This document shows, in pieces, positions 31,620-45,151 of a stretch of DNA of 64,000 nt. Both the position numbers and the translations under genes were made by a program. Each line of letters starts with the position of its first letter. Position 1 is the stretch's first letter. A model generated the notes under the pieces. That model was given only the letters and a program-made list of their open reading frames with translations, was not told where the DNA came from and did no database searches. Origin of the DNA: Gammaproteobacteria bacterium Ga0077554 (lineage in GTDB: Bacteria > Pseudomonadota > Gammaproteobacteria > Ga0077554 > Ga007554); the NCBI GenBank assembly GCA_001464585.1, contig LNFF01000031.1, positions 67,148 through 131,147 of the forward strand, given 5' to 3'.

Positions 31620-33044
31620 ATGAGTGATAAGAAAAAATTTAGCGCGGGTGTTAAAGAATATCGACAGAACTACTGGATGCCCAATTATGTGCCTCTGGAC
31701 ACCGATATTCTAGCGTGCTTCAAGATCGTCCCGCAAGCGGGTGTAGACCGTGAAGAAGTCGCCGCTGCCGTGGCCGCCGAATCTTCCACCGGCACCTGGA
31801 CCACAGTGTGGACCGACCTGTTGACCGACATGGATTATTACAAGGGCCGCGCCTACCGCATCGAAGACGTGCCCGGTGATGACACCTGCTTCTATGCTTT
31901 CGTTGCTTACCCGATTGACCTGTTCGAAGAAGGCTCCGTGGTCAACGTGTTTACCTCGCTGGTGGGTAACGTTTTCGGCTTTAAAGCCCTGCGTGCGCTG
32001 CGCCTTGAAGATGTGCGCTTCCCCATCGCTTATGTGAAAACCTGCGGCGGCCCGCCCAGCGGTATTCAGGTTGAGCGTGACAAGATGAACAAGTACGGTC
32101 GTCCATTGCTGGGCTGCACCATCAAGCCCAAGCTCGGCTTGTCTGCCAAGAACTACGGCCGTGCGGTATACGAATGCCTGCGCGGTGGCCTGGATTTCAC
32201 CAAGGACGACGAGAACATTAACAGCCAGCCCTTTATGCGCTGGCGTGACCGCTTCCTGTTTGTGCATGACGCAACCCTGTCCGCACAAGCTGAAACCGGC
32301 GAGCGTAAAGGCCACTACCTGAATGTCACCGCACCGACCCCGGAAATGATGTATCAGCGTGCTGAGTTCGCCAAAGAAATCGGCGCACCGATCATCATGC
32401 ACGATTACATCACCGGCGGCTTCTGCGCCAATACGGGTCTGGCCAACTGGTGCCGTGACAACGGTATGCTGCTGCATATCCATCGCGCCATGCACGCTGT
32501 AATCGACCGTAACCCGCACCACGGTATTCACTTCCGCGTGCTGGCAAAGATTCTGCGCCTCTCCGGCGGTGACCATCTGCACTCGGGCACCGTAGTTGGC
32601 AAGCTCGAAGGTGATCGCGCGCCGACCCTGGGTTTTGTTGACTTGATGCGTGAATCATTCATTCCTGAAGACCGCTCGCGCGGCATTTTCTTCGATCAGG
32701 ACTGGGGCTCCATGCCTGGCGTATTCCCGGTGGCATCCGGTGGTATTCACGTCTGGCACATGCCGGCACTGGTGAACATTTTCGGCGATGATTCGATTCT
32801 GCAATTCGGTGGTGGAACGCTCGGCCATCCATGGGGTAACGCCGCAGGTGCCTGCGCTAACCGTGTCGCACTTGAAGCCTGTGTTGATGCGCGCAATGAA
32901 GGCCGTGAAATTGAACGTGAAGGCAAAGAGATTCTTGCCAACGCCGCCAAGACCAGCCCCGAATTGAAAATCGCCATGGAAACCTGGAAAGAGATCAAGT
33001 TCGAGTTTGATACCGTGGATAAGCTGGACGTAGTGAACCGTTAA
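31620..33044 (+). CDS. cbbL: RuBisCO large subunit, form IA
   Basis: 474 aa; [20 protein letters not shown]...[24 protein letters not shown]...; carboxysome-type gene context. Confidence 0.95.
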
Positions 33045-33112
33045 TTTTTGGCTCGCTTTTTCTGAGTTGCATGATACGTGGGTGTTAAAACGCCTCTGCA
33101 AATGACCACTTT

Positions 33113-33153
33113 CGCCGTATATGTCGCCATTCATGAAATGGCAATATACGGCG
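33113..33153 (+). other. Stable imperfect hairpin in the cbbL-cbbS intergenic region
   Basis: cgccgtatatgtcgccatt catgaa atggcaatatacggcg. Possible processing or stability element between the large and small subunit cistrons. Confidence 0.5.
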
Positions 33154-33175
33154 ATTCAAAAGAAAGGAAATAAAA

Positions 33176-33508
33176 ATGTCTGATATTCAAGATTACAAAT
33201 CAACGCCCAAATTTGAAACCTTTTCGTATTTGCCAGCGATGACGCCGGAAAAAACCCGCCGTCAGATCGCCTACATTGTGAGTCAGGGCTGGAACCCGGG
33301 CATTGAACATGTAGAGCCTGAACGCGCTTTTAATTATTACTGGTATATGTGGAAGTTGCCGATGTTTGGTGAGCAGTCGGTCGATGTCATCATCGCTGAA
33401 CTGGAAGCCTGTCACCGCGCGCATCCCAATAACCACGTGCGACTGATCGGCTACGACAATTACTCGCAGAGTCAGGGCAGCGCTTTCGTGGTGTTTCGCG
33501 GCCGGTAA
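33176..33508 (+). CDS. cbbS: RuBisCO small subunit
   Basis: 110 aa, [20 protein letters not shown]...[13 protein letters not shown]. Confidence 0.95.
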
Positions 33509-33532
33509 TCCGATGCCTAGGTAAGCAACCGA

Positions 33533-33562
33533 TAGTGGGCGATCCGGCACAGGCTCGCCCAC
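33533..33562 (+). other. Hairpin (gtgggcga...tcgcccac) between cbbS and csoS2; possible partial terminator or attenuator
   Basis: 8-bp GC-rich stem with 12-nt loop, no clear U-tract. Confidence 0.35.
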
Positions 33563-33613
33563 GTATCACATGAATTGCCGATTGTAGTAAAAGTGTAATG
33601 GAAGGATAAAAGC

Positions 33614-35890
33614 ATGAGCAACGCCATGGCAGAAAATCAGGGTTCCGTGCCCAGCGGCACAGCGGGTCGCATGTTATCACGTGCGCGCCGTCAAGCACTG
33701 TCGCACGGCGGTAAGTCGGGCACCGGACAGGTTGCAGCAAAACCGCAACCAGCCAGGGTGAAACCGGGTTCTGACGCCCGTTCCACCGCCTCGGCCACTG
33801 CCCCGGTCTATTCTGCCCCGGCAAATAACAGCCCGCCACCCAGCAACGGCGACGCGCAGGGAAAAGCTAGTGTTGCGGGAAGTAGGATGTCGGAAGCGAC
33901 CGAAAAAACCGACACCTGTGGCTGCAAAAATACCCCAGCACAACAAACGCTGGAAGCCATCTGCGCCTTGGTGGATGCAGAGCCAAGCGCCGTAGGGTCG
34001 AGTGCTTCCAGTGTTCGCCAGCTCTGCCAAAGCCGCCGCCAGGCACTTTCCAGTCAAGGCAAACTGGCCATCAAGCCCAACGGCAAGAATGGTTCGGCGC
34101 GTCGCAACAGTGGCGGCTCCAGAATGGTGAATAGCGTGATGAATGGCCTGAGCGGGCGTGCAGCAGCCCAGGCGCGACGTGAAGAGTTATGCGTGAATGG
34201 TCGCGGCGATAGCCCAGTGTGCCGCCCCAGTGGACGGGTGCGCAGCACGGCCGCCGTTACGCCAGTCAAGGTAGAAGAAGGCAACACCCTGCGTGGCAAC
34301 CTGATTACCGGCACCCAGGTAGAGCGTAACAACAAGATAACAGGTATCGAGGCCGGCAGTTGCCGCGCGATCACCGGCACCGAATACATTGGTACAGAAC
34401 AGTACGAGACATTATGCGCCACCACACCTTCCGCAGCACCCGCTAAAGTGGGCGTGGGTTCAACCAGCCGCAGCCAGCGCGTAAGTGGTACGCAGGTGGG
34501 CCGCAGCACCCAGGTAACGGGTGACGAGTATGGCGCCTGCAAGAATGTGACGGGCAACGAATACCTGAACGCCGAACAATTTGAATCACTGTGCGCCAGC
34601 AAGCCCGCGCCCAGCCCCGCCAAGGTGGGCATGTTTGCTACGCGCGCCGGGCACTCCGTCAGCGGTACTGAAGTCGGTCGTAGCCTCAAAGTAACCGGAG
34701 ATGAACCCGGCGCCTGCCTTAAGTTGACCGGTAGCCAGTATTATCAACCCGATCAGTCCGGCGCCGTATGTCAGGGCAGCGGTGTACCGCACAAAGTAAG
34801 CGTGATGAGCACGATCCGTGGACGCCAGGTCACCGGCGTCAACGTGGCATCAAGCGCATCTGTCACCGGAAGTGAATACGGTGCATGTGCGGGCGTGACG
34901 GGCACTGAATACACTGGGCTGCAACAATATCAGGGCTGTAACCGTGCACCGGTATTAACACCAGAAAAAGTTACCGTACTGGGCACCTGGCGCGGCCAGG
35001 CGGTTTCTGGTACGAACGTGGAACACAACTCAAAAGTCACTGGCGATGAGTATGGGGGTTGCCAGCCGATTTCCGGTACTGAATACATTGGTCCCGGCCA
35101 ATATACGGCAGTGTGCGCGCCCAATGCGCTTACCGCTACACGGGAGCGTATTTCCACACCACGCGGTGCGGCGGGCGCCAGCATGACGGGCGTACGGCAA
35201 GGCATTGAGAACAAAGTCACAAGCAGTGCGCGTGGAGCCAGTGGATTAAGTGCCGGCCAGCGCCTAAGTGGCACACCTTATTCAGATGACGCGCGCCCCG
35301 CTCTTTCGGGCGCGGTAGGAATGAGCCAGCACCCTTTGACACGGGGTCCTGCTGATCAAACCAATCGGGTTAACATGAGCAGTGTTGTCGCCCCTGTGCA
35401 ACGTAATTTCAGCGTGATGTCACCCGCGCGCACGGCGCAGGAAAGCCAGCTTAGCCGGATTACCGGCACGGCTTACGGCGCACAAGGCCGTATTACCGGG
35501 CCGGTGAATCTGGCCGCCGGACTGGTTTCTGGCACACCGGAGTTTCGTTATCGTGACGATCAGGACGCTGGCTATGTCGCCGCGCCACCTGTCGCACAGA
35601 CGCCAGCAGTAGTATCATCCAATCGTGTCACAGGGGAAGGTCGTGAAGGAGGTTTTTCCATCACGGGCGCCGCATGGAAACGCGGCGGCACCACCACGGG
35701 TACCGAAGGTACCTCTGCAACGCGGCGCAATCCGACATTGCGCGGCGATCAGCGCAGCATGGCGATGCAGCAAATCACTGCGATGAAAGAACGCGAACAT
35801 CTGCAAGTGCCACCAAGCAAAGTAACTGGCAGCAGCGGCAACACCGCTACTGGTTCCACTATCACTTACTCGGGAGGCGCGCGCGGCTGA
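33614..35890 (+). CDS. csoS2: Carboxysome assembly protein CsoS2
   Basis: 758 aa, repetitive V(T/S)G.EYG and Cys-containing repeat motifs, N-terminal RARRQALSHGGKSG. Follows cbbS. Confidence 0.9.
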   Translation: MSNAMAENQGSVPSGTAGRMLSRARRQALSHGGKSGTGQVAAKPQPARVKPGSDARSTASATAPVYSAPANNSPPPSNGDAQGKASVAGSRMSEATEKTDTCGCKNTPAQQTLEAICALVDAEPSAVGSSASSVRQLCQSRRQALSSQGKLAIKPNGKNGSARRNSGGSRMVNSVMNGLSGRAAAQARREELCVNGRGDSPVCRPSGRVRSTAAVTPVKVEEGNTLRGNLITGTQVERNNKITGIEAGSCRAITGTEYIGTEQYETLCATTPSAAPAKVGVGSTSRSQRVSGTQVGRSTQVTGDEYGACKNVTGNEYLNAEQFESLCASKPAPSPAKVGMFATRAGHSVSGTEVGRSLKVTGDEPGACLKLTGSQYYQPDQSGAVCQGSGVPHKVSVMSTIRGRQVTGVNVASSASVTGSEYGACAGVTGTEYTGLQQYQGCNRAPVLTPEKVTVLGTWRGQAVSGTNVEHNSKVTGDEYGGCQPISGTEYIGPGQYTAVCAPNALTATRERISTPRGAAGASMTGVRQGIENKVTSSARGASGLSAGQRLSGTPYSDDARPALSGAVGMSQHPLTRGPADQTNRVNMSSVVAPVQRNFSVMSPARTAQESQLSRITGTAYGAQGRITGPVNLAAGLVSGTPEFRYRDDQDAGYVAAPPVAQTPAVVSSNRVTGEGREGGFSITGAAWKRGGTTTGTEGTSATRRNPTLRGDQRSMAMQQITAMKEREHLQVPPSKVTGSSGNTATGSTITYSGGARG

Positions 35891-35895
35891 TCTGA

Positions 35896-37527
35896 ATGAA
35901 TACTCGCAACCGCCCCGCGCGTAGCACAAGCTCATTAGCTGGAGTACGCCCCACCCCTTACGGGCTGGGGACGCCAAGCGGTGCCTTGCCCGGACGCCAG
36001 CCTGCCTATGCCTATCCGGCGCGGCAGCCAGTGCATACGGTGGCGAGCACAGCGAGCGCGATGGAACCCAACCCGGCCTGCACGATACAGAGCGGCCGTT
36101 TGTGTCGCCACCCATTGACGAACGACATTGAAAATCGGCGTTTGCTGGCGCATGAGCGAACCATTAAGGAACGCTTTGCCAATATCGTTCCGGTATTGAA
36201 GCGCATTGCTGGCTTACAGCATACGCCAGACTTTGTCGAGCAGGCGCAAGCCATTGCCGTTCAGGAGCTGGGCTTTTCGCTACGCACCTCGATTCTCGCG
36301 GATGCCTGGGCGACTGATCTTGATATGCGCGCCCTGTACGGCGAAAGTGTGCTGGGTACATTACGTTTACTGGCGGAGCAAACCCGCGCAGCAAATCCGA
36401 CTGAAACCGGGGAAGGAAACGTAGATGAGGCGATGTCATTTTTACTGGATTGTGGTTACCACGCCGTGGACATTTCGCCTTGCTCGGACGGGCGATTAAA
36501 AGGCTTGGCGCGTTACATTTTACGCCTGCCCGCCGCTGCGGTGCGCAGCCGCAAGTCGTATGCTGGCGCAATGTTTGATGTGGAGGCCAATGTAAAACGC
36601 TGGGTCGAAACCGAGTTGATGCGTTTTCGTGAAGGCCGCCCAGTCACCGCTGATGCCGGTACGCGTTATCTGAAGATGGTGGTATACCACACCAGCAGTT
36701 CTGATCCCGCGCACGAGGGTTGCGCCGCGCATGGCAGCAATGAAACCCAGGCGGCAGGAAAAGGGCTGGAGCGCTTGCGCGAGTTCCGCCAGGCGATTGA
36801 AAACAGTTTTTGTTGTGGTGCATCGGTGGATATGTTGCTGGTGGGTGTCGATACCGATACCGATGCAATCAAGGTACACATACCCGATGCTGACGGTGAG
36901 ATAAGTTTGTATCGCGCCGTGGATAACCTGAGCCTGTATCGCGAGACGGTCAACGATAGCGAAAACAGCGCGCGGCTCAAGGTGTATCAGGCGATTCAGG
37001 CGGCCAGCGCCAAAGAGGGCTGGGCCGGCGGCAACGGCGAACCTCATGAAGGTATGCGGCGTTTGATTGCCACGCTGTTGATTAACAACCTGTCGCAGAT
37101 CGAATATGTGTGCGGCAACTGGGGTGGACGTTACCCCGACATCGGGCATAACGAACGCTTTATCAGTGTCGGCGATGGCTTTGAAGAATTTCAGTTACGC
37201 AACCTGGCGTACTTCGCCCACCTGCATACAGTGGAAGAAGGCGCGCCGGATATGGATATCGGTATTAAAATTTTCAAAATGTTGAACGTGAGCCATGGCT
37301 TGCCGATCCCACTGGCAATTCACTTCCGCTACGACAGTCGCGTGCCGGGTAACCGTGAACGCACCGTGGAACGCTGCCAGCGCATCAAGGCAGCAATTGA
37401 ATCGCGCTATAGCGAGTTGGCGCGTCAAGGGCTATTAGTGAGCGGCATGACAGTACAGGATAAACAGCCTGGCAGCCCGATTGAATTGATCGGCACCAGT
37501 GGCACTGAAAGTTTTGCGGGGCACTGA
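35896..37527 (+). CDS. csoSCA: Carboxysome shell carbonic anhydrase CsoSCA (CsoS3)
   Basis: 543 aa, CSDGRLKG motif; position after csoS2. Confidence 0.85.
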   Translation: MNTRNRPARSTSSLAGVRPTPYGLGTPSGALPGRQPAYAYPARQPVHTVASTASAMEPNPACTIQSGRLCRHPLTNDIENRRLLAHERTIKERFANIVPVLKRIAGLQHTPDFVEQAQAIAVQELGFSLRTSILADAWATDLDMRALYGESVLGTLRLLAEQTRAANPTETGEGNVDEAMSFLLDCGYHAVDISPCSDGRLKGLARYILRLPAAAVRSRKSYAGAMFDVEANVKRWVETELMRFREGRPVTADAGTRYLKMVVYHTSSSDPAHEGCAAHGSNETQAAGKGLERLREFRQAIENSFCCGASVDMLLVGVDTDTDAIKVHIPDADGEISLYRAVDNLSLYRETVNDSENSARLKVYQAIQAASAKEGWAGGNGEPHEGMRRLIATLLINNLSQIEYVCGNWGGRYPDIGHNERFISVGDGFEEFQLRNLAYFAHLHTVEEGAPDMDIGIKIFKMLNVSHGLPIPLAIHFRYDSRVPGNRERTVERCQRIKAAIESRYSELARQGLLVSGMTVQDKQPGSPIELIGTSGTESFAGH

Positions 37528-37776
37528 ATGAAAATTTGTCAGGTGGAAAAAACCCTGGTTTCGACCAACCGGATTAAAGAGATGGGGCATCGCCCATTGC
37601 TGGTGGTGAAAGAAAAAGGTGGTACACGCAGCATCGCAGTAGATGCCGTGGGCTGCATCCCAGGCGACTGGGTGATTTGCGTAGGCTCATCTGCTGCACG
37701 CGAAGCCGCAGGCAGCAAGGAATATCCCAGCGACCTGACCATCGTCGGCATCATCGACCATTGGTCAGAAGACTGA
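37528..37776 (+). CDS. csoS4A: Carboxysome vertex protein CsoS4A (EutN/CcmL family)
   Basis: 82 aa, MKICQVEKTLVSTNRIKEMGHRPLLVV... Confidence 0.85.
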   Translation: MKICQVEKTLVSTNRIKEMGHRPLLVVKEKGGTRSIAVDAVGCIPGDWVICVGSSAAREAAGSKEYPSDLTIVGIIDHWSED

Positions 37777-37777
37777 C

Positions 37778-38041
37778 ATGGAGATTATGCAGGTGGTGTC
37801 AGATCTCGTAGCCACACGCCGGGTGCCCGGCCTGTATAGCGCCTCGTTGCGGGTAGTGCGTGACGCCAAGGGCAGGCTCAATGTAGCCACCGACCCGGTG
37901 GGTGTGCCTGAGGGTAAATGGGTGTTTACGCTGGCGGGATCACCCGCACGCTATGGCATGGGTAATTACAGGATTCTTACTGACCTAACCATCGGCGGCA
38001 TTATTGATGGATGGGATCCGGATACTGGGCGCACCGGGTAA
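37778..38041 (+). CDS. csoS4B: Carboxysome vertex protein CsoS4B (EutN/CcmL family)
   Basis: 87 aa paralog immediately after csoS4A. Confidence 0.85.
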   Translation: MEIMQVVSDLVATRRVPGLYSASLRVVRDAKGRLNVATDPVGVPEGKWVFTLAGSPARYGMGNYRILTDLTIGGIIDGWDPDTGRTG

Positions 38042-38118
38042 AAACGAAGTCGTGGTTGTTTGAGAAAACAGTTTTTATTAACGTAGCTTTATATTAACGT
38101 AAACTTAAGGAGTGCAAG

Positions 38119-38418
38119 ATGGCGATTGAAAGACAGGGTATTGCATTAGGCATGATCGAAACACGCGGCCTGGTACCGGCGATTGAAGCCGCAGACGCAA
38201 TGACCAAAGCAGCGGAAGTACGCCTGATTGGGCGTCAGTTTGTCGGTGGCGGTTATGTCACAGTGTTGGTACGTGGCGAAACCGGTGCGGTAAACGCCGC
38301 CGTGCGTGCCGGCGCAGATGCGTGTGAGCGCGTGGGTGATGGCCTGGTTGCAGCGCACATCATTGCCCGCGTACATAATGAAGTGGAAAACATTCTGCCG
38401 ACGCAAGTCTCGGCTTAA
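38119..38418 (+). CDS. csoS1: Carboxysome shell hexamer protein CsoS1 (BMC-H), copy 1
   Basis: 99 aa, [41 protein letters not shown]. Confidence 0.9.
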   Translation: MAIERQGIALGMIETRGLVPAIEAADAMTKAAEVRLIGRQFVGGGYVTVLVRGETGAVNAAVRAGADACERVGDGLVAAHIIARVHNEVENILPTQVSA

Positions 38419-38473
38419 AGGTGTATCGTTTAACAACGTTTAATAACTAAATGTAAAGAGAAGGAAATATATC

Positions 38474-38773
38474 ATGGCAAACACAGTAAGCGGTATTGCA
38501 TTAGGTATGATCGAAACACGCGGCCTGGTACCGGCGATTGAAGCCGCAGACGCAATGACCAAAGCAGCGGAAGTACGTCTGATTGGACGCCAGTTTGTCG
38601 GTGGCGGTTATGTCACCGTGTTGGTTCGCGGCGAGACCGGCGCGGTAAACGCCGCAGTACGTGCCGGTGCGGATGCGTGTGAGCGCGTCGGTGATGGCTT
38701 GGTTGCAGCGCACATCATTGCCCGCGTGCATAACGAAGTGGAAAACATTTTGCCGACGCAAATCTCGGTTTAA
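38474..38773 (+). CDS. csoS1: Carboxysome shell hexamer protein CsoS1 (BMC-H), copy 2
   Basis: 99 aa, near-identical to copy 1. Confidence 0.9.
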   Translation: MANTVSGIALGMIETRGLVPAIEAADAMTKAAEVRLIGRQFVGGGYVTVLVRGETGAVNAAVRAGADACERVGDGLVAAHIIARVHNEVENILPTQISV

Positions 38774-38856
38774 TATATCACCGGGTTCAGCCTCGGTTTA
38801 AAGAAGCGTCGTTTAATAACGCTTAACAATCAGATGAAAAGAGAAGGAAATATATC

Positions 38857-39186
38857 ATGGCAAACACAGTAGGTGGCGTTGCATTAGGTATGATCGAAAC
38901 ACGTGGCTTGGTACCGGCTATTGAAGCGGCAGACGCGATGACCAAAGCGGCAGAAGTACGTCTGGTAGGCCGCGAGTTTGTCGGTGGCGGTTATGTCACG
39001 GTATTGGTGCGCGGCGAAACCGGTGCGGTGAATGCAGCGGTACGTGCTGGTGCAGATGCATGTGAGCGTGTGGGTGATGGCTTGGTTGCGGCGCACATTA
39101 TTGCACGCGTACATAATGAAGTGGAAAACATTCTGCCGGCCAAGCCTGATACAGGCACCAGTGGGCGTGATGGGGATATCAGCTAA
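38857..39186 (+). CDS. csoS1: Carboxysome shell hexamer protein CsoS1 (BMC-H), copy 3 with a short C-terminal extension (CsoS1B-like)
   Basis: 109 aa; same core plus tail [15 protein letters not shown]. Confidence 0.9.
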
Positions 39187-39227
39187 GACCACGGTCTGAG
39201 CTGAACCCTCTACTGAAGAGTATAACC

Positions 39228-39662
39228 ATGCAAACAGATCCCCGTTTGGGCAGCTACCTGTCGCGCGCGCTCAGCCATGAAATGGCCGCCGTGCAACAGT
39301 ATTTACTGCAAGCCAAATTGACCAGCATGTGGGGCTTATCTGCCCAGAGCGCCCACTTTCGCCAGGATGTCAGCGGTGAGTTGGCACATGCTGAACGGCT
39401 GATGGAACGCATGTTGATTTTGGGTATTCCTTGTAATGCTACCCAATTACCTGCGGCCCGGCCCGGCAGGACGCTGGAGGAAATGCTGCACATTGATCGC
39501 CTTCTGGAAATTGAAGCGATTCGCCTTTATGAAGAGGCGGCGCTCTATTGTGGCAGACGCCAGGACGGTGAAACACAGGCCTTGATGCGCGCCATTATGG
39601 AAGATGAGTTAAGTCATCTCCAGGATCTTGATCAACAACTGTCAGCATTCCGCAAGGGGTAA
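39228..39662 (+). CDS. Bacterioferritin/ferritin-like protein of the carboxysome operon
   Basis: 144 aa four-helix ferritin-like pattern (EMAAVQQYLLQA...ELAHAERLMERM...EIEAIRLYEEAA...EDELSHLQ). Confidence 0.7.
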   Translation: MQTDPRLGSYLSRALSHEMAAVQQYLLQAKLTSMWGLSAQSAHFRQDVSGELAHAERLMERMLILGIPCNATQLPAARPGRTLEEMLHIDRLLEIEAIRLYEEAALYCGRRQDGETQALMRAIMEDELSHLQDLDQQLSAFRKG

Positions 39663-39666
39663 GATC

Positions 39667-39927
39667 ATGGCGCCAACCGACATAAAGACCACAGCACACA
39701 AGCCAGCATTACACTGGCGTTTTGATTTCGGCAGCTATGGTGAAGCACGGCGCTTCCTTGATCAACTCGCCGACTTGTCGAAGCGCGATAATTATTATCC
39801 CAATATTAATTTCGGCAAAACTTATGTCAATGTCAGCATTGACGCCGAAGGTCAAATGGAATTGGCCGAAAAAGAAGCCGCTTTCATCGATGAGATGAAA
39901 AAATACGCGGCACAAAGCCCGGCGTAA
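39667..39927 (+). CDS. Pterin-4a-carbinolamine dehydratase-like protein (carboxysome-operon RuBisCO assembly factor-like)
   Basis: PCD/DCoH-like HWRFDFGSYGEARRFLDQLADLSKRDNYYPNINFGKTYVNVSI. ATG at 39667 directly after the bfr-like stop. Confidence 0.65.
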   Translation: MAPTDIKTTAHKPALHWRFDFGSYGEARRFLDQLADLSKRDNYYPNINFGKTYVNVSIDAEGQMELAEKEAAFIDEMKKYAAQSPA

Positions 39928-39982
39928 TACGCGCCCCACATAGGTGGGGCACAGACAGGTCACCGAGGCGAATCGAGGCGAT

Positions 39983-40618
39983 ATGACTGACAGGGTAATC
40001 GCGGTAATCAACCAGAAAGGTGGCACTGGCAAAACCACGCTGGCACTCAATCTCGCCGCTGGTCTGGCGCGCCGCGCGGCCACAGCGATCGCCGACGCTG
40101 ATCCGCAGCGTTCTATCAGCCAATGGGTTGCGATGGGAGGGAATGAGGATGCATTGCCTCGTGTAACCCAGGTCGGCGACTCGGCAGCGGCGGCGATTTT
40201 CCACCTCAAGAAAAATCATCGCTACGTGGTGGTGGATTGCCCGCCCGCCGTGCAGGGCGCTGCCATTGAAGAGATCATGGCCTCAGCAGACCGGGTGTTA
40301 ATTCCGGTGTTGCCCTCGCCCCTCGATTTATGGGCAAGCGTGGAAATGGCGGCGCTGGTGAATGCGGCGCAGAAGAAAAATGGGGCATTGCAAGCCTGGC
40401 TGGTATTGAATCAGGTAGAAACGCGCAATGCCTTGTCGCGGGTCATGCAACAAGCGGTCGCTGAATTCGATGTGCCGCTACTGCAGGCAAGCATTCAACG
40501 GCGTGCGGCCTACCGTAGCGCCGCAGTCGAAGGTGTTAGCGTGTATGCGCTCGGCAGCCGTGGATTACAAGCGGTAGCGGATATCGAAGCAATTATTGAA
40601 GAGGTGTTACGTCAATGA
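39983..40618 (+). CDS. mcdA: ParA-family ATPase, McdA-like (carboxysome positioning)
   Basis: Deviant Walker A IAVINQKGGTGKTTLALNLAAGLA. Located in the alpha-carboxysome operon. Confidence 0.75.
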   Translation: MTDRVIAVINQKGGTGKTTLALNLAAGLARRAATAIADADPQRSISQWVAMGGNEDALPRVTQVGDSAAAAIFHLKKNHRYVVVDCPPAVQGAAIEEIMASADRVLIPVLPSPLDLWASVEMAALVNAAQKKNGALQAWLVLNQVETRNALSRVMQQAVAEFDVPLLQASIQRRAAYRSAAVEGVSVYALGSRGLQAVADIEAIIEEVLRQ

Positions 40619-40860
40619 AAAAGAAACTGGAATCCAAGCTCGCGCAAGGCGTGCGCCAGGTTAAATCCCAAACTAAGCCACAGGTTCAATCACAGCACGA
40701 ACAAGAGCCCGAAGCAACGTCTGCCAACTTGGCAACGCCGCGCGCCGCGCAGGGACGCGCAAGTGTCGCGGGCGCAGGAGCGACCGCCGCGCAGCCGCCA
40801 GCGGCGAATCCAGTGACGCGTTCAGATGATCTGCACCCGCAGCGGGTCTGGCCCGATTAA
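40615..40860 (+). CDS. Small low-complexity protein, McdB-like candidate (McdA partner)
   Basis: 81 aa, basic N-terminus, Q/A/P-rich disordered middle, Trp near the C-terminus (...LHPQRVWPD). Start overlaps the mcdA stop in an ATGA arrangement. Confidence 0.5.
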
Positions 40861-40883: not shown

Positions 40884-41687
40884 ATGTCAGAAGGATTGGA
40901 ACAATACCGGGTTCGTAAAGAACCCTACTACCGTGCCGTGAGCGATGAGGTGGCATTGTACGAAGCCGCCTATTCGGTGCGTATGCCGATCATGCTAAAA
41001 GGCCCGACCGGGTGCGGCAAAACACGTTTCGTGGAATACATGGCGTGGAAACTTGGCAAGCCCTTGATCACTGTAGCGTGCAACGAAGACATGACCGCCT
41101 CTGATCTGGTGGGGCGTTTCCTGCTCGCTGCCAGTGGCACGCGCTGGCAGGATGGCCCGCTCGCACTGGCGGCACGGTATGGCGCGATCTGTTACCTGGA
41201 TGAAGTGGTGGAAGCGCGTCAGGACACTACGGTGGTGATTCATCCGCTCACGGATAATCGCCGTGTGTTGCCGCTGGAAAAAAAAGGCGAGCTGCTCAAC
41301 GCGCACGCCGATTTCCAGATTGTGATTTCGTATAACCCCGGCTATCAAAGCTTGATGAAAGACCTGAAGCAATCCACCAAACAACGCTTTGGCGCGCTGG
41401 ATTTTAATTACCCCGCGCACGATATCGAAACCGAAATCGTCGCCCACGAAACCGGCGTGAGCAGTGATGTCGCTGGCAAGCTGGTGAGCATCGCCGAACG
41501 TGCGCGTAATCTCAAAGGCCACGGTCTCGATGAAGGTATCTCGACGCGCATGTTGATCTATGCAGGTTCGCTGATCAACAAAGGTGTCGACCCTGTTGCG
41601 GCATGCCGCGTCACCCTGGTACGCCCCATTACTGATGACCCGGATATGCGCGATGCGCTGGATGCGGCTGTAACGACATTCTTTTAA
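40884..41687 (+). CDS. cbbQ: CbbQ, MoxR-type AAA+ ATPase RuBisCO activase subunit
   Basis: 267 aa, Walker [11 protein letters not shown]. Confidence 0.9.
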
Positions 41688-41707: not shown

Positions 41708-44053
41708 ATGGCGGTCGAACTCGAAAAATATCAGGACATCCTCGACGAACTTGGCGATCATGCGGGTGAAGTGCTGCGTGCCTCGTGGACCGAAGCGGCG
41801 CGGACCTTCACGCCGCGTGGCCTGGAAGCGTATCTGCAAGGTGCCGCCAGCCTGAAGTCTTTGGGTCGTGGCACGGATCTGGTAGTGAGCTTTATTCAAA
41901 GTGCCCCAGCGGTGGCGCACGAAATCGGCGAAGATGCTGTCAGTGATCTATTAAGCACCGCCATTAAGATGTATTCCAAGACCAGTGCCACGGTCATCTC
42001 CCTGATTTTCTCTTCCAGCCCGGTGGCTGCGGCGCGACTCGGTGATCTGGAATTATTTCGCGGTTATCTCCACCTCCTCGACACCTTAATGGCGCAAGCG
42101 CCGCGCGGCATACGCCCGATGCTGGATCAGCTCGGCACGCTGCTCGGACAATTGACGCTGGGCGGATTACGCCGCTGGGCGCTGTGGGGCGCGCACGCAC
42201 ATAAAACCGACTTCGATGCACAGCAACTTTATTTCAGCCTGCAAAGCCCGGAATCATTGGGCGTGCTGCAAAAAGAACGCAAAGGTACTTTATTCATTGA
42301 CGTACAGCGGCGCATCGGTATGTATTTGCGCGCGCTGTGGGCGCGCGATTTTTACATGCGCCCCACCAGTGGCGATTTTGAATCGCGCGAAGGTTATCGC
42401 CCCTACATCGAAGGCTTCATCATGCATTTGCCCGATGCTTATGATGATCACCCCCCAGGCGATGCCGGGGTAGAACAGCGTAGCGGACTGGAAGTATATC
42501 GCGCCGCTGCCGCACATGCCGCGTGCCATGTAGTTTACACCACCACACAGTTTGACAATGCAGGACTCTCCGCCTTGCAGATAGCACTGATCGGTCTGGT
42601 CGAAGATGCGCGGGTGGAGGCATTGGCCGTGCAGCGTTTCCCTGGCTTACAGCACATCTGGTTACCCTTACATACTGCAACGCCAGCAACCGGTGAATCA
42701 GCGGGCGCATTGATGGCGCGTCTGGCGCATGCCTGGCTGGATCCCGATTATCGTGACGATCACGCCTGGGTAACACTGGGTCGCCAATTATTTAACGAGC
42801 AACAGGCACAATTACAATCCACAGAAATATCGCGCGCGATTGGGCTGCAACTGAGCGCTGAACTATTAGAGATGGGGATAGTTTTTTCATCGGCAACCGA
42901 TGTGGCGGATATCCCCTATCGCGACGACAACCGCTATATGTGGGAGTTCGCTGATTTGCGCGAAGCGGGACAGGTCGTCGCAGGCGTGAATGTGCAGCAA
43001 GTACGTAAATATGCCAGCCTGATGGAAATGTTGAACACGCTGGACGTGCCTGGCGCGGGTGACGATGCCGGTGAAATCTGGGTGTTGCCTACGGAATTTT
43101 TCCACGACGAGGATCCGACGACCAGCATCAACCAGAAAGAAGGCCGCGAGCCACCGCCGCAACCTTATCATTACGCGGAATGGGATTACCAGATGCAACT
43201 GGAGCGACCCGATTGGTGTACCGTTCTCGAAAAACGTGCCCCGTCCGGCGATGTGGCGATCATCGAGGAGATCGTGGTCAAACACAAGCCGATTATCAGC
43301 CGCCTGAAATTCCTCATCGAAGGTATGCAGCCGCAAGGCGTACAGCGCATCCGCAAACAGGAAGATGGCGACGATATTGATTTGAATGCGGCGATTCGCG
43401 CCATGATCGAAATTCGCATGGGCGAGCAGCCCGATCCCCGTATCATGATGCGTAATGTGCGCAAGGTGCGTGACCTGTCGGTGCTATTGCTGATTGATCT
43501 CTCCGCATCCACCAATGACCCGGTGCGCGGTTCGGACAACACGGTGTTGCAACTGGCGCGTGAGGCGGCGGTGTTGCTGGCGGATGCGCTGAATAAAATC
43601 GGCGACCCGTTTGCCATTCACGGCTTCGACTCGAATGGCCGTCACGATATTGAGTATTTCCGTTTCAAGGATTTTGACGCGCCTTATGACGACAAGGCCA
43701 AAGCCCGGCTGGCGGGTATGCGCGGCGAACTCTCCACGCGCATGGGCGCGGCGATGCGTCATGCTGGCTCGTTCCTCAAGCGCCAGCCCAATCAGAAAAA
43801 ATTATTGCTGGTGGTGACCGATGGCGAACCGGCGGATAACGATGTACGCGATCCGCAGTATTTGCGCTTCGATGCCAAAAAATCCGTCGAAGAGTTGGCG
43901 CGCAATGGCATTACGACGTATTGCTTGAGCCTCGATCCCGGCGCTGACCAATATGTCTCGCGTATTTTCGGCGCGAAGAATTATATGGTGGTGGATCATG
44001 TGCAACGGCTGCCGGAAAAACTGCCGCTGCTCTATATGGGATTGACGCGATAA
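41708..44053 (+). CDS. cbbO: CbbO, von Willebrand factor A domain RuBisCO activase adaptor
   Basis: 781 aa, C-terminal VWA domain with MIDAS motif (LLLIDLSAST...DG). Follows cbbQ. Confidence 0.85.
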   Translation: MAVELEKYQDILDELGDHAGEVLRASWTEAARTFTPRGLEAYLQGAASLKSLGRGTDLVVSFIQSAPAVAHEIGEDAVSDLLSTAIKMYSKTSATVISLIFSSSPVAAARLGDLELFRGYLHLLDTLMAQAPRGIRPMLDQLGTLLGQLTLGGLRRWALWGAHAHKTDFDAQQLYFSLQSPESLGVLQKERKGTLFIDVQRRIGMYLRALWARDFYMRPTSGDFESREGYRPYIEGFIMHLPDAYDDHPPGDAGVEQRSGLEVYRAAAAHAACHVVYTTTQFDNAGLSALQIALIGLVEDARVEALAVQRFPGLQHIWLPLHTATPATGESAGALMARLAHAWLDPDYRDDHAWVTLGRQLFNEQQAQLQSTEISRAIGLQLSAELLEMGIVFSSATDVADIPYRDDNRYMWEFADLREAGQVVAGVNVQQVRKYASLMEMLNTLDVPGAGDDAGEIWVLPTEFFHDEDPTTSINQKEGREPPPQPYHYAEWDYQMQLERPDWCTVLEKRAPSGDVAIIEEIVVKHKPIISRLKFLIEGMQPQGVQRIRKQEDGDDIDLNAAIRAMIEIRMGEQPDPRIMMRNVRKVRDLSVLLLIDLSASTNDPVRGSDNTVLQLAREAAVLLADALNKIGDPFAIHGFDSNGRHDIEYFRFKDFDAPYDDKAKARLAGMRGELSTRMGAAMRHAGSFLKRQPNQKKLLLVVTDGEPADNDVRDPQYLRFDAKKSVEELARNGITTYCLSLDPGADQYVSRIFGAKNYMVVDHVQRLPEKLPLLYMGLTR

Positions 44054-44079
44054 ACTCTGCATTGCCTTAGGATTATAAG

Positions 44080-45033
44080 ATGCCTTTAATCAACATGAAC
44101 GATATGTTGCAGCACGCTTACCGTTACAACTATGCGGTTGGTGCATTTGGTGTTGCGGGCTGGGATATGCTGGGGGGTGTAGTGGAAGCGGCGGAAACCA
44201 TGCGCTCGCCTATCATTTTGAGTTTGTCAAAAGCCTATCCTGGCACGGAGAATATTGAACCACTGGCTCTGGCGGTAGTGAGTATGGCGCAGCGCGCCAG
44301 CATACCCATTGCATTTCAGGTGGAAGTGGAAGACGATCCCAACACCGTGGTGGAAGCCATCAAAACAGGTTGCGGCGGTGTGGTTTTTAATGCCTCTCAA
44401 CTCAACTTTCCTGACAATGTAGCGTTGACGAAGAAAGCGGTGGAATTGGCGGCGCCACGCGGTGTTATGGTGGTGGGCGAGCTGGCTAATCTCGACAATG
44501 GAGAAACGCCGGAATCAACAGCAGGCAGAGTGACCTCGCCCATCGAAGCCAAACATTATGTAGAACGCACCGGCGTCACTTGCCTGGCGGTATCCGTCAG
44601 CCGGATGGAGCGCGGCAGCGCTAAGCACGATTTCTCGCGTCTGGCGAAAATCAACCAGGCACTCAGTATCCCACTGGGTATTCATGGCGGCGGCGACCTG
44701 TCGGACGATCAATTCCGGCGCATGATCCAGTGCGGCGCGACTAAAATCAATTACAGCGCGCCACTGTTCGACGTGGTTGCAAAGCGCATTCGCCAGAATG
44801 CACGGACGCCCGACACTGGCTATGCAGAACTCGTGGAACAGACACGCGATGCGATTCGTATCGAGGTCGAACGCTGCATTCGCCTGTGGGGATGCGGTGG
44901 ACGGGCGGCGGAAGTTTTACAGCAAAGCCGTGCATGGCTACTCAATGCAACCAGCGAAACCGAAACAGCAGTGGGCGCTACGGCGCTGGGTGCCAGCAGC
45001 GCTTCATCCGTAGTTGCCAAGCGTCGTTTTTAG
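44080..45033 (+). CDS. Class II fructose-bisphosphate aldolase-family protein (CbbA-like) with apparently degenerate Zn/catalytic motifs
   Basis: N-terminus aligns by eye with Calvin-cycle CbbA (MPLINMNDMLQHAYRYNYAVGAFGV). Where CbbA has HQDHG this protein has FQVEVEDD. The GTSHGAYK His motif is not recognisable (AVSVSRMERG). IHGGGD is retained. Confidence 0.55.
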   Translation: MPLINMNDMLQHAYRYNYAVGAFGVAGWDMLGGVVEAAETMRSPIILSLSKAYPGTENIEPLALAVVSMAQRASIPIAFQVEVEDDPNTVVEAIKTGCGGVVFNASQLNFPDNVALTKKAVELAAPRGVMVVGELANLDNGETPESTAGRVTSPIEAKHYVERTGVTCLAVSVSRMERGSAKHDFSRLAKINQALSIPLGIHGGGDLSDDQFRRMIQCGATKINYSAPLFDVVAKRIRQNARTPDTGYAELVEQTRDAIRIEVERCIRLWGCGGRAAEVLQQSRAWLLNATSETETAVGATALGASSASSVVAKRRF

Positions 45034-45070
45034 ATAGGACTTACGCAAAATTTAAATGCCCGTTCGTGGT

Positions 45071-45119
45071 GAGCCTGTCGAACCACTCGCCCCGCATCCA
45101 GATGCCCTTCGACAGGCTC
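45071..45119. other. 12-bp-stem hairpin (gagcctgtcgaa...ttcgacaggctc) between the convergent aldolase-like gene and alaS
   Basis: Seen in sequence; 25-nt loop, no U-tract. Possible bidirectional terminator or REP-like element. Confidence 0.35.
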
Positions 45120-45151
45120 AGGGCGAACGGAGGTAGGGTGTTTTGCTAGAT

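Follow-up and report, generated by a model that had tools for sequence, protein, structure and literature searches.

Gene organization of the aldL locus

We analyzed a stretch of 64,000 nucleotides from Gammaproteobacteria bacterium Ga0077554 (assembly GCA_001464585.1, contig LNFF01000031.1, positions 67,148 to 131,147 of the forward strand), referred to here as the window. Its subject is aldL, an aldolase-like gene found directly downstream of cbbO. aldL is the last gene of an alpha-carboxysome/CbbQO operon, because alaS converges on it from the opposite strand and a hairpin lies between the two genes (Table 1). The results described below suggest that the AldL protein retains the class II aldolase fold and is probably a conserved pseudoenzyme of the carboxysome system.

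Direct reading of the window revealed an intact open reading frame (ORF), with an ATG at 44080 and a stop codon at 45031-45033. The cbbO stop codon and the aldL ATG are on the same strand and are separated by a 26-nt spacer, which contains a Shine-Dalgarno-like sequence 7 nt 5' of the ATG; a promoter scan found no promoter-like site in this spacer. On the other side, the 118-nt intergenic spacer between aldL and alaS holds a long imperfect hairpin with a 13-bp perfect core. A terminator scan around the gene found no canonical T-tract terminator 3' of aldL, and the hairpin is likely a bidirectional terminator or a REP-like (repetitive extragenic palindromic) element that marks the operon end.

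The operon 5' of cbbQO comprises cbbL, cbbS, csoS2, csoSCA, csoS4A/B, three csoS1 genes, and genes for a ferritin-like protein, an acRAF-like protein, ParA/McdA, and a small McdB-like ORF. Pfam supported the Rubisco large and small subunits, CsoS2_M, CsoSCA, Ferritin, CbiA/ParA, and the BMC domain in three shell proteins. csoS4A/B are two EutN-like ORFs, and the match of the pterin-dehydratase-like (acRAF-like) gene at 39667-39927 to Pterin_4a was weak. The VWA (von Willebrand factor type A) domain of CbbO covers residues 592-758, and the identity of this protein also follows from synteny.

Table 1. Features of the aldL locus, in coordinates of the window
Feature	Position	Strand	Basis
alpha-carboxysome operon 5' of cbbQO	31620..40860	+	ORF list and Pfam
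cbbQ, MoxR-type AAA+ activase subunit	40884..41687	+	Pfam AAA_5 and CbbQ_C
cbbO, VWA-domain subunit of the CbbQO Rubisco activase (781 aa), directly 5' of aldL	41708..44053	+	
Shine-Dalgarno-like AGGA in the cbbO-aldL spacer	44069..44072	+	sequence reading
aldL, aldolase-like ORF (317 aa and stop)	44080..45033	+	ORF call, translation, PF01116 match
Class II aldolase-fold TIM-barrel domain, residues 1-285	44080..44934	+	AlphaFold2 model, Foldseek, dN/dS
Degenerate motif 1, F79-Q-V-E82-V83-E-D-D86, in place of x-H-L-D82-H83-G	44314..44337	+	
V131-V132-G-E134-L-A in place of V-E132-[AG]-E134-L-G	44470..44487	+	
Degenerate motif 2, S172-V-S-R175-M-E177-R178, in place of I-G-T-x-H180-G	44593..44613	+	
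L-G-I-H202-G-G-G-D, sole Zn-ligand motif kept	44674..44697	+	
Disordered Ala/Ser/Gly/Thr-rich C-terminal tail, residues 286-317, ending VVAKRRF	44935..45030	+	
Long imperfect hairpin between convergent aldL and alaS	45045..45146	.	folding -45.2 kcal/mol, z -3.3

Fold and family of the AldL protein

A Pfam search with the AldL protein matched PF01116, the full-length class II aldolase domain, across residues 5-275 (E 1.2e-50), and gave no other match at E <= 1. The AlphaFold2 model, built on a 38-ortholog alignment, was a TIM barrel with a mean predicted local distance difference test score (pLDDT) of 83.6, in which the eight beta/alpha units mostly exceeded 90. The barrel segments of lowest confidence were residues 141-149 and 175-181, i.e., the former catalytic loops, and pLDDT fell below 50 at residues 175-181. 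Foldseek comparison of the model with the PDB returned class II aldolases as the best matches (E ~1e-24, TM 0.75-0.94), with YdjI (6ofu) at the top at a target TM of up to 0.94, and SqiA and fructose-bisphosphate aldolase (FBA) also among them. The closest solved relatives found with phmmer were YdjI, a sulfofructose-phosphate aldolase (deposited as KbaY), Bacillus FBA, and AgaY.

AldL scored below the cut-off of every curated NCBIfam aldolase equivalog or subfamily model scored. The best score was 159.7 bits for NF005284 (cut-off 406), and TIGR00167 gave 121.7 (cut-off 215.6), a model that P0112, a protein of the sister clade described below, passes at 227.5. A first-pass annotation, made from the sequence alone, had described the protein as collinear with the Calvin-cycle class II aldolase CbbA at the N-terminus. 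The collinearity with aldolases was upheld by the PF01116 match, whereas the affinity to CbbA was not: the CbbA-type model TIGR01521 (FruBisAldo_II_B) scored 51.6 bits against a cut-off of 496, with a match limited to residues 3-174, and E. coli FbaA-type PDB chains aligned to residues 6-51 only. The long CbbA-type class II fructose- and sedoheptulose-bisphosphate aldolases are about 347-359 aa in length and have characteristic insertions. In sequence, AldL comes nearest to the short class IIb ketose-bisphosphate aldolases (YdjI, KbaY, and SqiA), not to the long Calvin-cycle CbbA.

Relatives of AldL

A search of 5.8 billion proteins yielded 386 relatives, and the best 120 of these were aligned. 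They split cleanly into a degenerate clade of about 70 sequences, which includes AldL, and a canonical sister clade of 47. The degenerate clade (68-70 sequences, 53-100% identity to AldL) carries E-[VLI] at positions 82-83 and has no His180. In these sequences D-H is replaced by F-Q-[VI]-E-[VLI] and G-T-x-H-G by S-V-[SNK]-R-x-x, and position 134 is mostly Gln. In the tree this clade was monophyletic with a long stem branch. The sister clade (41-49% identity to AldL) keeps D-H, G-T-V-H-G, and H-G-G-[ST]-G; the D-H-H-H tetrad was present in 40 of its 47 members, and the remaining seven were His180Gln.

Most sister-clade proteins are 390-410 aa long and end in a C-terminal Dabb domain (PF07876, stress-responsive A/B barrel); we refer to this architecture as Ald-Dabb. 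Against the PDB, the Dabb domain matched only structural-genomics proteins of unknown function. Both clades share two signatures that are absent from ordinary aldolases, one N-terminal (MPLVxMxDMLxHAYR) and one that follows the barrel (ERCIxxWGxGGRAAEVLxQC). Pfam detected no Dabb domain in AldL of the window, and in the tail alignment the AldL tail occupies the position of the sister-clade Dabb domain. These features indicate, at the level of sequence, that AldL descends from the Ald-Dabb family and that its Dabb domain was replaced by a disordered tail of ~30 residues. Seven proteins of the sister clade (P0098, P0102, P0106, P0107, P0110, P0119, and P0120) carry G-T-V-Q-G together with "AIQLDH" and are otherwise canonical Ald-Dabb; they may represent an intermediate or an altered-metal state.

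Loss of active-site residues

Residues were numbered according to E. coli K-12 KbaY, aligned via its kbaY gene with MAFFT. They were mapped by phmmer against the PDB, by MAFFT with KbaY, and by hmmsearch with a canonical-only profile made from 81 canonical short class II aldolases and KbaY, and these three independent alignments were concordant. The first-pass annotation had stated that an HQDHG motif was replaced by FQVEVEDD, that a GTSHGAYK histidine motif was not recognizable, and that only IHGGGD remained. The replacement, the absence of His180, and the retained IHGGGD were all confirmed. The spellings HQDHG and GTSHGAYK were not appropriate, as they belong to the long class; the proper equivalents are H-L-D-H-G and G-T-x-H-G.

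At the first motif, catalytic Asp82 is Glu82 in AldL, as in 68/68 orthologs, and the Zn ligand His83 is Val83 (Val in 63, Leu in 3, and Ile in 2 orthologs). Glu132 is replaced by Val132, which is Val in 66 of the 68, and Glu134 is retained in the window protein and is Gln in 60. At the second motif, the G177-T-A-H180-G loop of KbaY corresponds to S174-R175-M176-E177 of AldL within an SVSRMER loop; three residues are deleted and His180 is gone. Arg175 is newly fixed at this site (65/68 orthologs), and position 177 varies (E24/N24/S12/G3). His208 of KbaY is retained as His202 of AldL and is His in 66/68 orthologs.

The residues that handle the substrate are altered in part. Phosphate-binding Ser211 is Gly205 in AldL (A36/G12/S9/T4 in the clade), Thr233 is Ala227 (S31/T25), and the Gly181 loop, which binds the phosphate of dihydroxyacetone phosphate (DHAP), is deleted, with hydroxyl residues partly kept across the clade, which may leave some phosphate binding. 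The position of the mobile-loop catalytic Glu142 varies among the orthologs (E27/Q17/D7/A6). The equivalents of His208, Lys228, and Asn230 (Asn224 of AldL) are all retained. Judged from the profile alignment to class II aldolases, which the first-pass annotation had proposed as a check, the missing ligands are absent rather than shifted. Two of the three histidine ligands of the catalytic Zn2+ (His83 and His180) are thus lost, and only His208 is kept. AldL is very probably not an aldolase.

Selection on the barrel and the tail

The substitutions were shared by 68-70 orthologs, and canonical motifs were found only in the paralogous sister clade, which answers a second check proposed in that annotation. 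Fixed clade-specific changes include Asp82Glu, Glu132Val, Thr178 to Arg175, Phe54Pro, and Phe59Ile. The AldL barrel is under strong purifying selection, because the pairwise ratio of nonsynonymous to synonymous substitution rates (dN/dS) of the barrel domain was 0.04-0.13 in the 12 ortholog pairs with measurable dS. The corresponding values for the C-terminal tail were 0.25-0.9.

Column entropy was compared region by region between the degenerate and sister clades. The beta5 to beta8 loops, where the metal and the DHAP phosphate were once bound and the mobile catalytic Glu was located, were much more variable in the degenerate clade (1.57 vs 0.67 for beta5, 0.97 vs 0.45 for beta6, 0.68 vs 0.36 for beta7, and 0.63 vs 0.32 for beta8). 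Outside the named loops, entropy was 0.79 in the degenerate clade and 0.92 in the sister clade, and the beta1 loop (F-G-V-A-G-W) was far tighter in the degenerate clade (0.28 vs 1.00). These results show that constraint was relaxed specifically at the old catalytic loops, while the remaining barrel is at least as constrained as that of the sister clade.

Residues 290-317 of the AldL tail had pLDDT <50, and the ortholog tails were variable and of low complexity, with a median length of 32 residues. Inspection of the tail by eye recognized neither a CsoS2-like Rubisco-binding peptide nor an amphipathic encapsulation peptide. A motif, [VILM]-F-[ASTG]-[KRNQG], was present in the last 14 residues of 20/67 ortholog tails after a variable disordered linker, compared with ~0.3 expected from shuffled tails, among sequences that are kin. 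The window tail, VVAKRRF, fits it only loosely. This weak terminal motif may be a short linear interaction motif. At one locus (L012:11481-12198), a second aldL copy in three frame-broken pieces (~61% identity) lies 0.5 kb 3' of the intact copy and looks like a decaying tandem duplicate.

Genomic context of the two clades

A genome scan with one genome per species gave 80 loci, which were annotated by tblastn with the window proteins and by motif state; contexts were counted where a locus had 6 kb or more of upstream sequence. In 11/11 loci of the degenerate clade, aldL lay 3' of carboxysomal cbbQ-cbbO on the same strand. The cso genes were visible in 10 of these, and at the eleventh only the end of cbbO was seen, followed by a 9-kb stretch left unannotated. 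The taxa were Sulfuriferula, Sulfurirhabdus, Gallionellaceae, other Nitrosomonadales, and an Acidithiobacillus metagenome-assembled genome (MAG). None of the 41 loci of the canonical sister clade was within a cso locus. Twenty-two were located 1-4 kb 3' of a non-carboxysomal cbbR<-cbbL-cbbS-cbbQ-cbbO cluster (Gallionella, Sulfuricella, and Sideroxydans), and 19 had no Rubisco gene nearby (Thiodiazotropha, Sedimenticola, and Thiohalobacter).

Where genes intervened between cbbO and aldL, they encoded inorganic carbon (Ci) transporters, either DabB and DabA or a SulP-STAS permease, in the orders cbbO-dabB-dabA-aldL and cbbO-sulP-aldL. The conserved trait is therefore the position as final gene of the operon for the carboxysome or CO2-concentrating mechanism (CCM), rather than strict adjacency to cbbO. 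The window itself also encodes a SulP-family permease (763 aa, 28163-30454), just 5' of a divergent cbbR. It has a C-terminal extension of ~360 residues without Pfam match, and no STAS domain was detected in it, unlike in the SulP of locus L015; it is possibly a bicarbonate transporter of the CCM.

Several other genes were observed near the aldolase-like gene. purE and purK, encoding aminoimidazole ribonucleotide (AIR) carboxylase and N5-carboxyaminoimidazole ribonucleotide (N5-CAIR) synthetase, which use CO2 or bicarbonate, adjoin it in several Rubisco/CCM loci of both canonical and degenerate type (L024:8343-9970; L038:9445-9990; L095:9199-10838; L005:11463-13048, minus strand; L015:11354-11878). 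In L095 they lie between Ald-Dabb and dabB-dabA-PII. A gene of the Sua5/YciO/YrdC family (threonylcarbamoyl-AMP synthase family, bicarbonate-dependent) is directly 3' of the aldolase-like gene at four loci of different lineages (L010:10933-11952; L086:2285-3304; L087:1953-2972; L091:5798-6802), and in L086 and L087 sbtA and a gene for a P-II (SbtB-like) protein come next. A DUF6671 protein of 282-302 aa is encoded within a few kb of degenerate aldL in Sulfuriferula/Sulfurirhabdus-type loci (L005:8998-9846, between dabA and aldL; L007:11751-12629, minus strand; L010:12667-13575).

Small ORFs without Pfam match were also found. A conserved 100-aa ORF with the motif G[ML]THLG[QR]MV[KR]D[GA]W[MV]FG...AHLPSRLP is directly 3' of non-carboxysomal cbbO in Gallionella/Sulfuricella-type loci that also bear canonical Ald-Dabb (L017:9166-9468; L024:7039-7341); an unrelated 105-aa ORF lies between cbbX and Ald-Dabb in L082. 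An ORF of 126-135 aa with the motif W[IV]...DG...[PV]LLAW...F adjoins Ald-Dabb in cbbX and cbbQO loci (L084:2544-2951; L040:9573-9953).

Repeated loss of the catalytic site in the Ald-Dabb family

When 1.84 billion cluster representatives were searched with a profile, the clade of the window fell into a single 50%-identity cluster, i.e., a narrow lineage. The D-H-H-H tetrad was kept in 11/42 long (at least 355 aa) Ald-Dabb-type representatives, compared with 87/98 short aldolases. The abundant core of the Ald-Dabb family is canonical (D-H-H-H in 106/118), and because of this the degenerate Ald-Dabb forms are divergent offshoots of a canonical family. Their replacement residues differ by lineage and include ER..HH, DR..HH, DT..SE, RC..RE, and AR.-D, among others. 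The commonest single change was His83 to Arg (14/38), and Arg or Lys was found at position 83 or within 177-181 in 22/38.

The genomic contexts of twelve degenerate offshoots were sampled. Two were in alpha-carboxysome loci, with the gene orders BMC-ferritin-ParA-CbbO-CbbQ-Ald (P0154) and BMC-ferritin-Pterin_4a-ParA-...-Ald-Dabb (P0150), and P0129 was in an alpha-carboxysome-type locus. P0149 was divergent to cbbR-cbbL-cbbS-csoS2, and P0165 followed a full cso operon in the order cso-CbbO-Ald-Dabb-purEK-dabB-dabA-PII. P0127 and P0140 were immediately 3' of cbbX, the red-type activase gene, and P0134 was the first gene of an Ald-Sua5-SbtA-PII cluster. P0137 had no CCM genes nearby, and the contexts of P0133, P0145, and P0135 were undecidable on short contigs. 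Two gene arrangements were unusual. At L095:5672-7984, a cbbO-like VWA gene is followed by a degenerate Ald-Dabb gene in a complete cso locus, and cbbQ was uncalled throughout its 17 kb. In L089 and L090 the order is cbbO, a 90-aa ORF, cbbQ, and Ald, the reverse of the usual Q-O.

These comparisons indicate that loss of the catalytic site was repeated independently in the Ald-Dabb family, and the degenerate forms stay in Rubisco/activase/CCM clusters. The lineage-specific nature of the replacements argues for lost catalysis with a retained non-catalytic role.

A conserved pseudoenzyme as the favored interpretation

Our favored interpretation, to which we assign a probability of about 0.6, is that aldL encodes a conserved pseudoenzyme that serves the Rubisco/CbbQO/carboxysome system without catalysis, as an accessory or binding protein. 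The first-pass annotation had likewise proposed a catalytically inactive homolog at the operon end. The loss of ligands, from which inactivity is inferred, together with the dN/dS values, the relaxed catalytic loops, and the carboxysome context, supports that proposal. The barrel would be unable to bind catalytic Zn2+ or to perform aldol cleavage, yet would be retained by selection. AldL would be co-expressed with the carboxysome and would bind rather than catalyze; its target would be Rubisco, the CbbQO activase, or some other part of the carboxysome or CCM, which it would serve as an accessory, adaptor, or sensor.

Candidate binding surfaces are the top-of-barrel loops of beta1 and beta2 (F-G-V-A-G-W and Y-P-G-T), which make up the side of the former active site that faced the acceptor aldehyde, and two family-specific helices, "MLxHAY" at the N-terminus and "ERCIxxWGxGGRAAEVL" at the C-terminus; the flexible tail could serve as a tether. 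Arg175, which is predicted to face invariant Glu82 in the old metal pocket, may substitute for the charge of the metal and thereby either stabilize a metal-free barrel or keep a residual anion (sugar-phosphate) site. Other lineages seem to have solved this in the same way, by changing His83 to Arg. CbbO contacts Rubisco through a MIDAS-carboxylate interaction (MIDAS, metal ion-dependent adhesion site; PMC4660213), and any relevance of the acidic E-x-[ED]-D-D loop of AldL to this contact is pure speculation.

Several points weigh against this interpretation. Glu82, Gln80, His202, Lys222, Asn224, Tyr225, and Arg175 show no or almost no variation, and they could possibly form a remodeled functional pocket, even one with new catalysis. 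The window protein has both Glu134 and Glu177, and on paper a site of one His and three carboxylates could hold another metal. As dabBA or sulP can separate aldL from cbbO, the link of aldL could be to Ci uptake and not to the activase. The ortholog counts are phylogenetically non-independent. Model alpha-carboxysome organisms lack aldL (review PMC12918739), and the gene is therefore dispensable for basic carboxysome function.

Among the alternatives, we consider it unlikely, though not negligible, that AldL is a neofunctionalized enzyme, which would perform metal-independent or other-metal sugar-phosphate chemistry through Glu82, His202, Lys222, Asn224, and Arg175. It might, for example, isomerize, epimerize, or detoxify products of Rubisco misfiring, such as xylulose-1,5-bisphosphate (XuBP), that are freed by CbbQO. 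The phosphatase CbbY has such a role, and its gene is beside that of CbbX; in Rhodobacter cbb operons, cbbY occupies the position after the activase gene. Relatives of aldL are similarly found directly 3' of activase genes, namely cbbO in the window and cbbX in L082 and L084. The strict conservation of Glu82, Gln80, His202, Lys222, and Tyr225 and the near-fixation of Arg175 and Asn224 would suit an active pocket, as would a hydroxyl residue at 227 in 56/68 orthologs, a Ser in the HG[SG]xG loop in 44/68, and the recurrence of Arg in the old metal site across lineages, described above. The substrate loops beta5-beta8, however, are the least constrained parts of AldL, disorder is predicted for two of them, and the catalytic-loop position 142 is variable. 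Moreover, other degenerate lineages in similar contexts carry different residues (RC..RE, AR-D, and AV.GD) and share no catalytic constellation. That the replacements differ while the context is the same speaks against a shared new chemistry and thus favors a binding role.

It is improbable that AldL is a GatZ/KbaZ-like non-catalytic partner that stabilizes or modulates a Calvin-cycle aldolase or a catalytic Ald-Dabb paralog. Class II aldolases are obligate oligomers, E. coli KbaZ is annotated as "putative tagatose-1,6-bisphosphate aldolase 1 chaperone" of KbaY, and one Gallionellaceae MAG has both a degenerate (L006) and a canonical (L029) copy. Yet this was the only one of 17 genomes with a degenerate gene, among the loci returned, that had a canonical Ald-Dabb paralog. 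Neither the window nor any of 17 related loci has an aldolase gene next to it, AldL has no similarity to the GatZ/KbaZ family, with PF01116 as its sole Pfam match, and the setting is the carboxysome/CCM and not sugar catabolism. An ordinary fructose- or sedoheptulose-bisphosphate aldolase, i.e., a CbbA isozyme whose ligands have become Glu or are only displaced in the alignment, is highly improbable. The PF01116 match spans the full length, and Glu82, Glu134, Glu177, and His202 of the window protein could in principle make a metal site. As a clade feature, this carboxylate site was rejected, as positions 134 (Gln in 60/68) and 177 (E/N/S/G) are unconserved. No shifted His or Asp was found in the alignment to the canonical-only profile, and the nearby His183, considered as a replacement ligand, was rejected because it is Tyr in several aligned orthologs (P0043, P0052, and P0065). 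The scores under all curated thresholds and the truncated DHAP-phosphate loop also stand against an ordinary aldolase. The chance that aldL is a pseudogene in decay or an artefact of assembly or sequencing is practically nil: the catalytic motifs are degenerate and L012 bears a fragmented second copy, but the ORF is intact, the fold prediction is confident, and the idea is refuted by the dN/dS values and by ~70 orthologs from many assemblies that share the substitutions.

The pseudoenzyme interpretation can be extended to the whole family, although we regard this extension as tentative and rather doubtful. Ald-Dabb proteins would be a general, unrecognized accessory factor of Rubisco/activase/CCM clusters, with a conserved job independent of aldol cleavage. 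Upon recruitment into alpha-carboxysome operons, such a protein would become a pure binding module whose catalytic site decays, and this would have happened repeatedly; the clade of the window would also have shed the Dabb domain. The conserved job could be that of an adaptor or regulator of the CbbQO (or CbbX) activase on Rubisco. Alternatively, the protein could be a non-hydrolyzing trap or sensor for inhibitory sugar bisphosphates from Rubisco repair, such as XuBP, pentodiulose bisphosphate (PDBP), and compounds like carboxyarabinitol bisphosphate (CABP).

Relatives of AldL are labeled "class II fructose-bisphosphate aldolase" in databases, a label that would mislead metabolic reconstructions. 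Alpha-carboxysome loci are closely catalogued, and acRAF, CbbQO, McdAB, and DAB are central to heterologous rebuilding of the CCM. A protein with an apparently dead aldolase fold recurs at the ends of alpha-carboxysome operons in sulfur- and iron-oxidizing Nitrosomonadales and some Acidithiobacillus. If AldL does modulate Rubisco repair, assembly, or encapsulation, it would be a missing part of this system and a clean natural case of an enzyme turned binding protein.

Comparison with known systems

The short class IIb aldolases (YdjI 6ofu, KbaY/AgaY 1gvf, GatY, the sulfofructose-phosphate aldolase SqiA 8q57, and Bacillus FBA 3q94) share PF01116 and the TIM barrel with AldL, at 26-30% identity and collinear across residues 1-277. 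Unlike them, AldL carries an additional helix at its C-terminus as well as a disordered tail, and its gene is in a carboxysome operon, whereas theirs are in sugar catabolism operons. The closest relatives are the Ald-Dabb proteins (PF01116 and PF07876), which also share the link to Rubisco and activase genes. AldL differs from the Ald-Dabb core in having neither D-H-H-H nor the Dabb domain of ~100 residues. In the sampled genomes, canonical Ald-Dabb genes were near non-carboxysomal cbbLS-cbbQO or elsewhere but never inside a cso locus, where aldL is found.

A "cbbA" of Acidithiobacillus ferrooxidans, AFE_1676 (Pfam01116 and Pfam07876), has the same operon position as aldL. It is the last gene of the cbb1 carboxysome operon, and reverse transcription PCR (RT-PCR) demonstrated its co-transcription with cbbQ1-cbbO1 (PMC2942843). 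It has been annotated simply as fructose-bisphosphate aldolase (PMC2942843; PMC6458275). In our literature search, AFE_1676 was the only published Ald-Dabb member found, and no biochemical characterization of any member was found. The search likewise returned nothing relevant on an aldolase-like carboxysome component, on the combination of PF01116 and PF07876, or on a link between XuBP and an aldolase. An aldolase-like component of carboxysome loci is unmentioned in a 2026 alpha-carboxysome review, a survey of atypical carboxysome loci, and two microcompartment catalogues, four sources that list the peripheral genes known so far or the aldolases found in other microcompartments.

GatZ/KbaZ resembles the proposed AldL in being a non-catalytic protein alongside class II aldolase chemistry (GatY/KbaY). 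AldL differs from it in having no sequence match, no adjacent catalytic aldolase gene, and another genomic context. A closer functional analogy may be acRAF, which is encoded in the same operon. This pterin-4a-carbinolamine-dehydratase-like protein is described as a Rubisco assembly factor and not as performing the ancestral reaction (review PMC12918739). As proposed for aldL, its gene is an enzyme-derived accessory gene, by analogy and not by homology, as the folds and ancestries are unrelated. The role of acRAF is backed by structure and genetics, whereas AldL is known from sequence. Genes for acRAF are common across alpha-carboxysome loci; aldL is confined to some lineages. acRAF thus provides a precedent for an enzyme fold recruited as a non-catalytic carboxysome helper.

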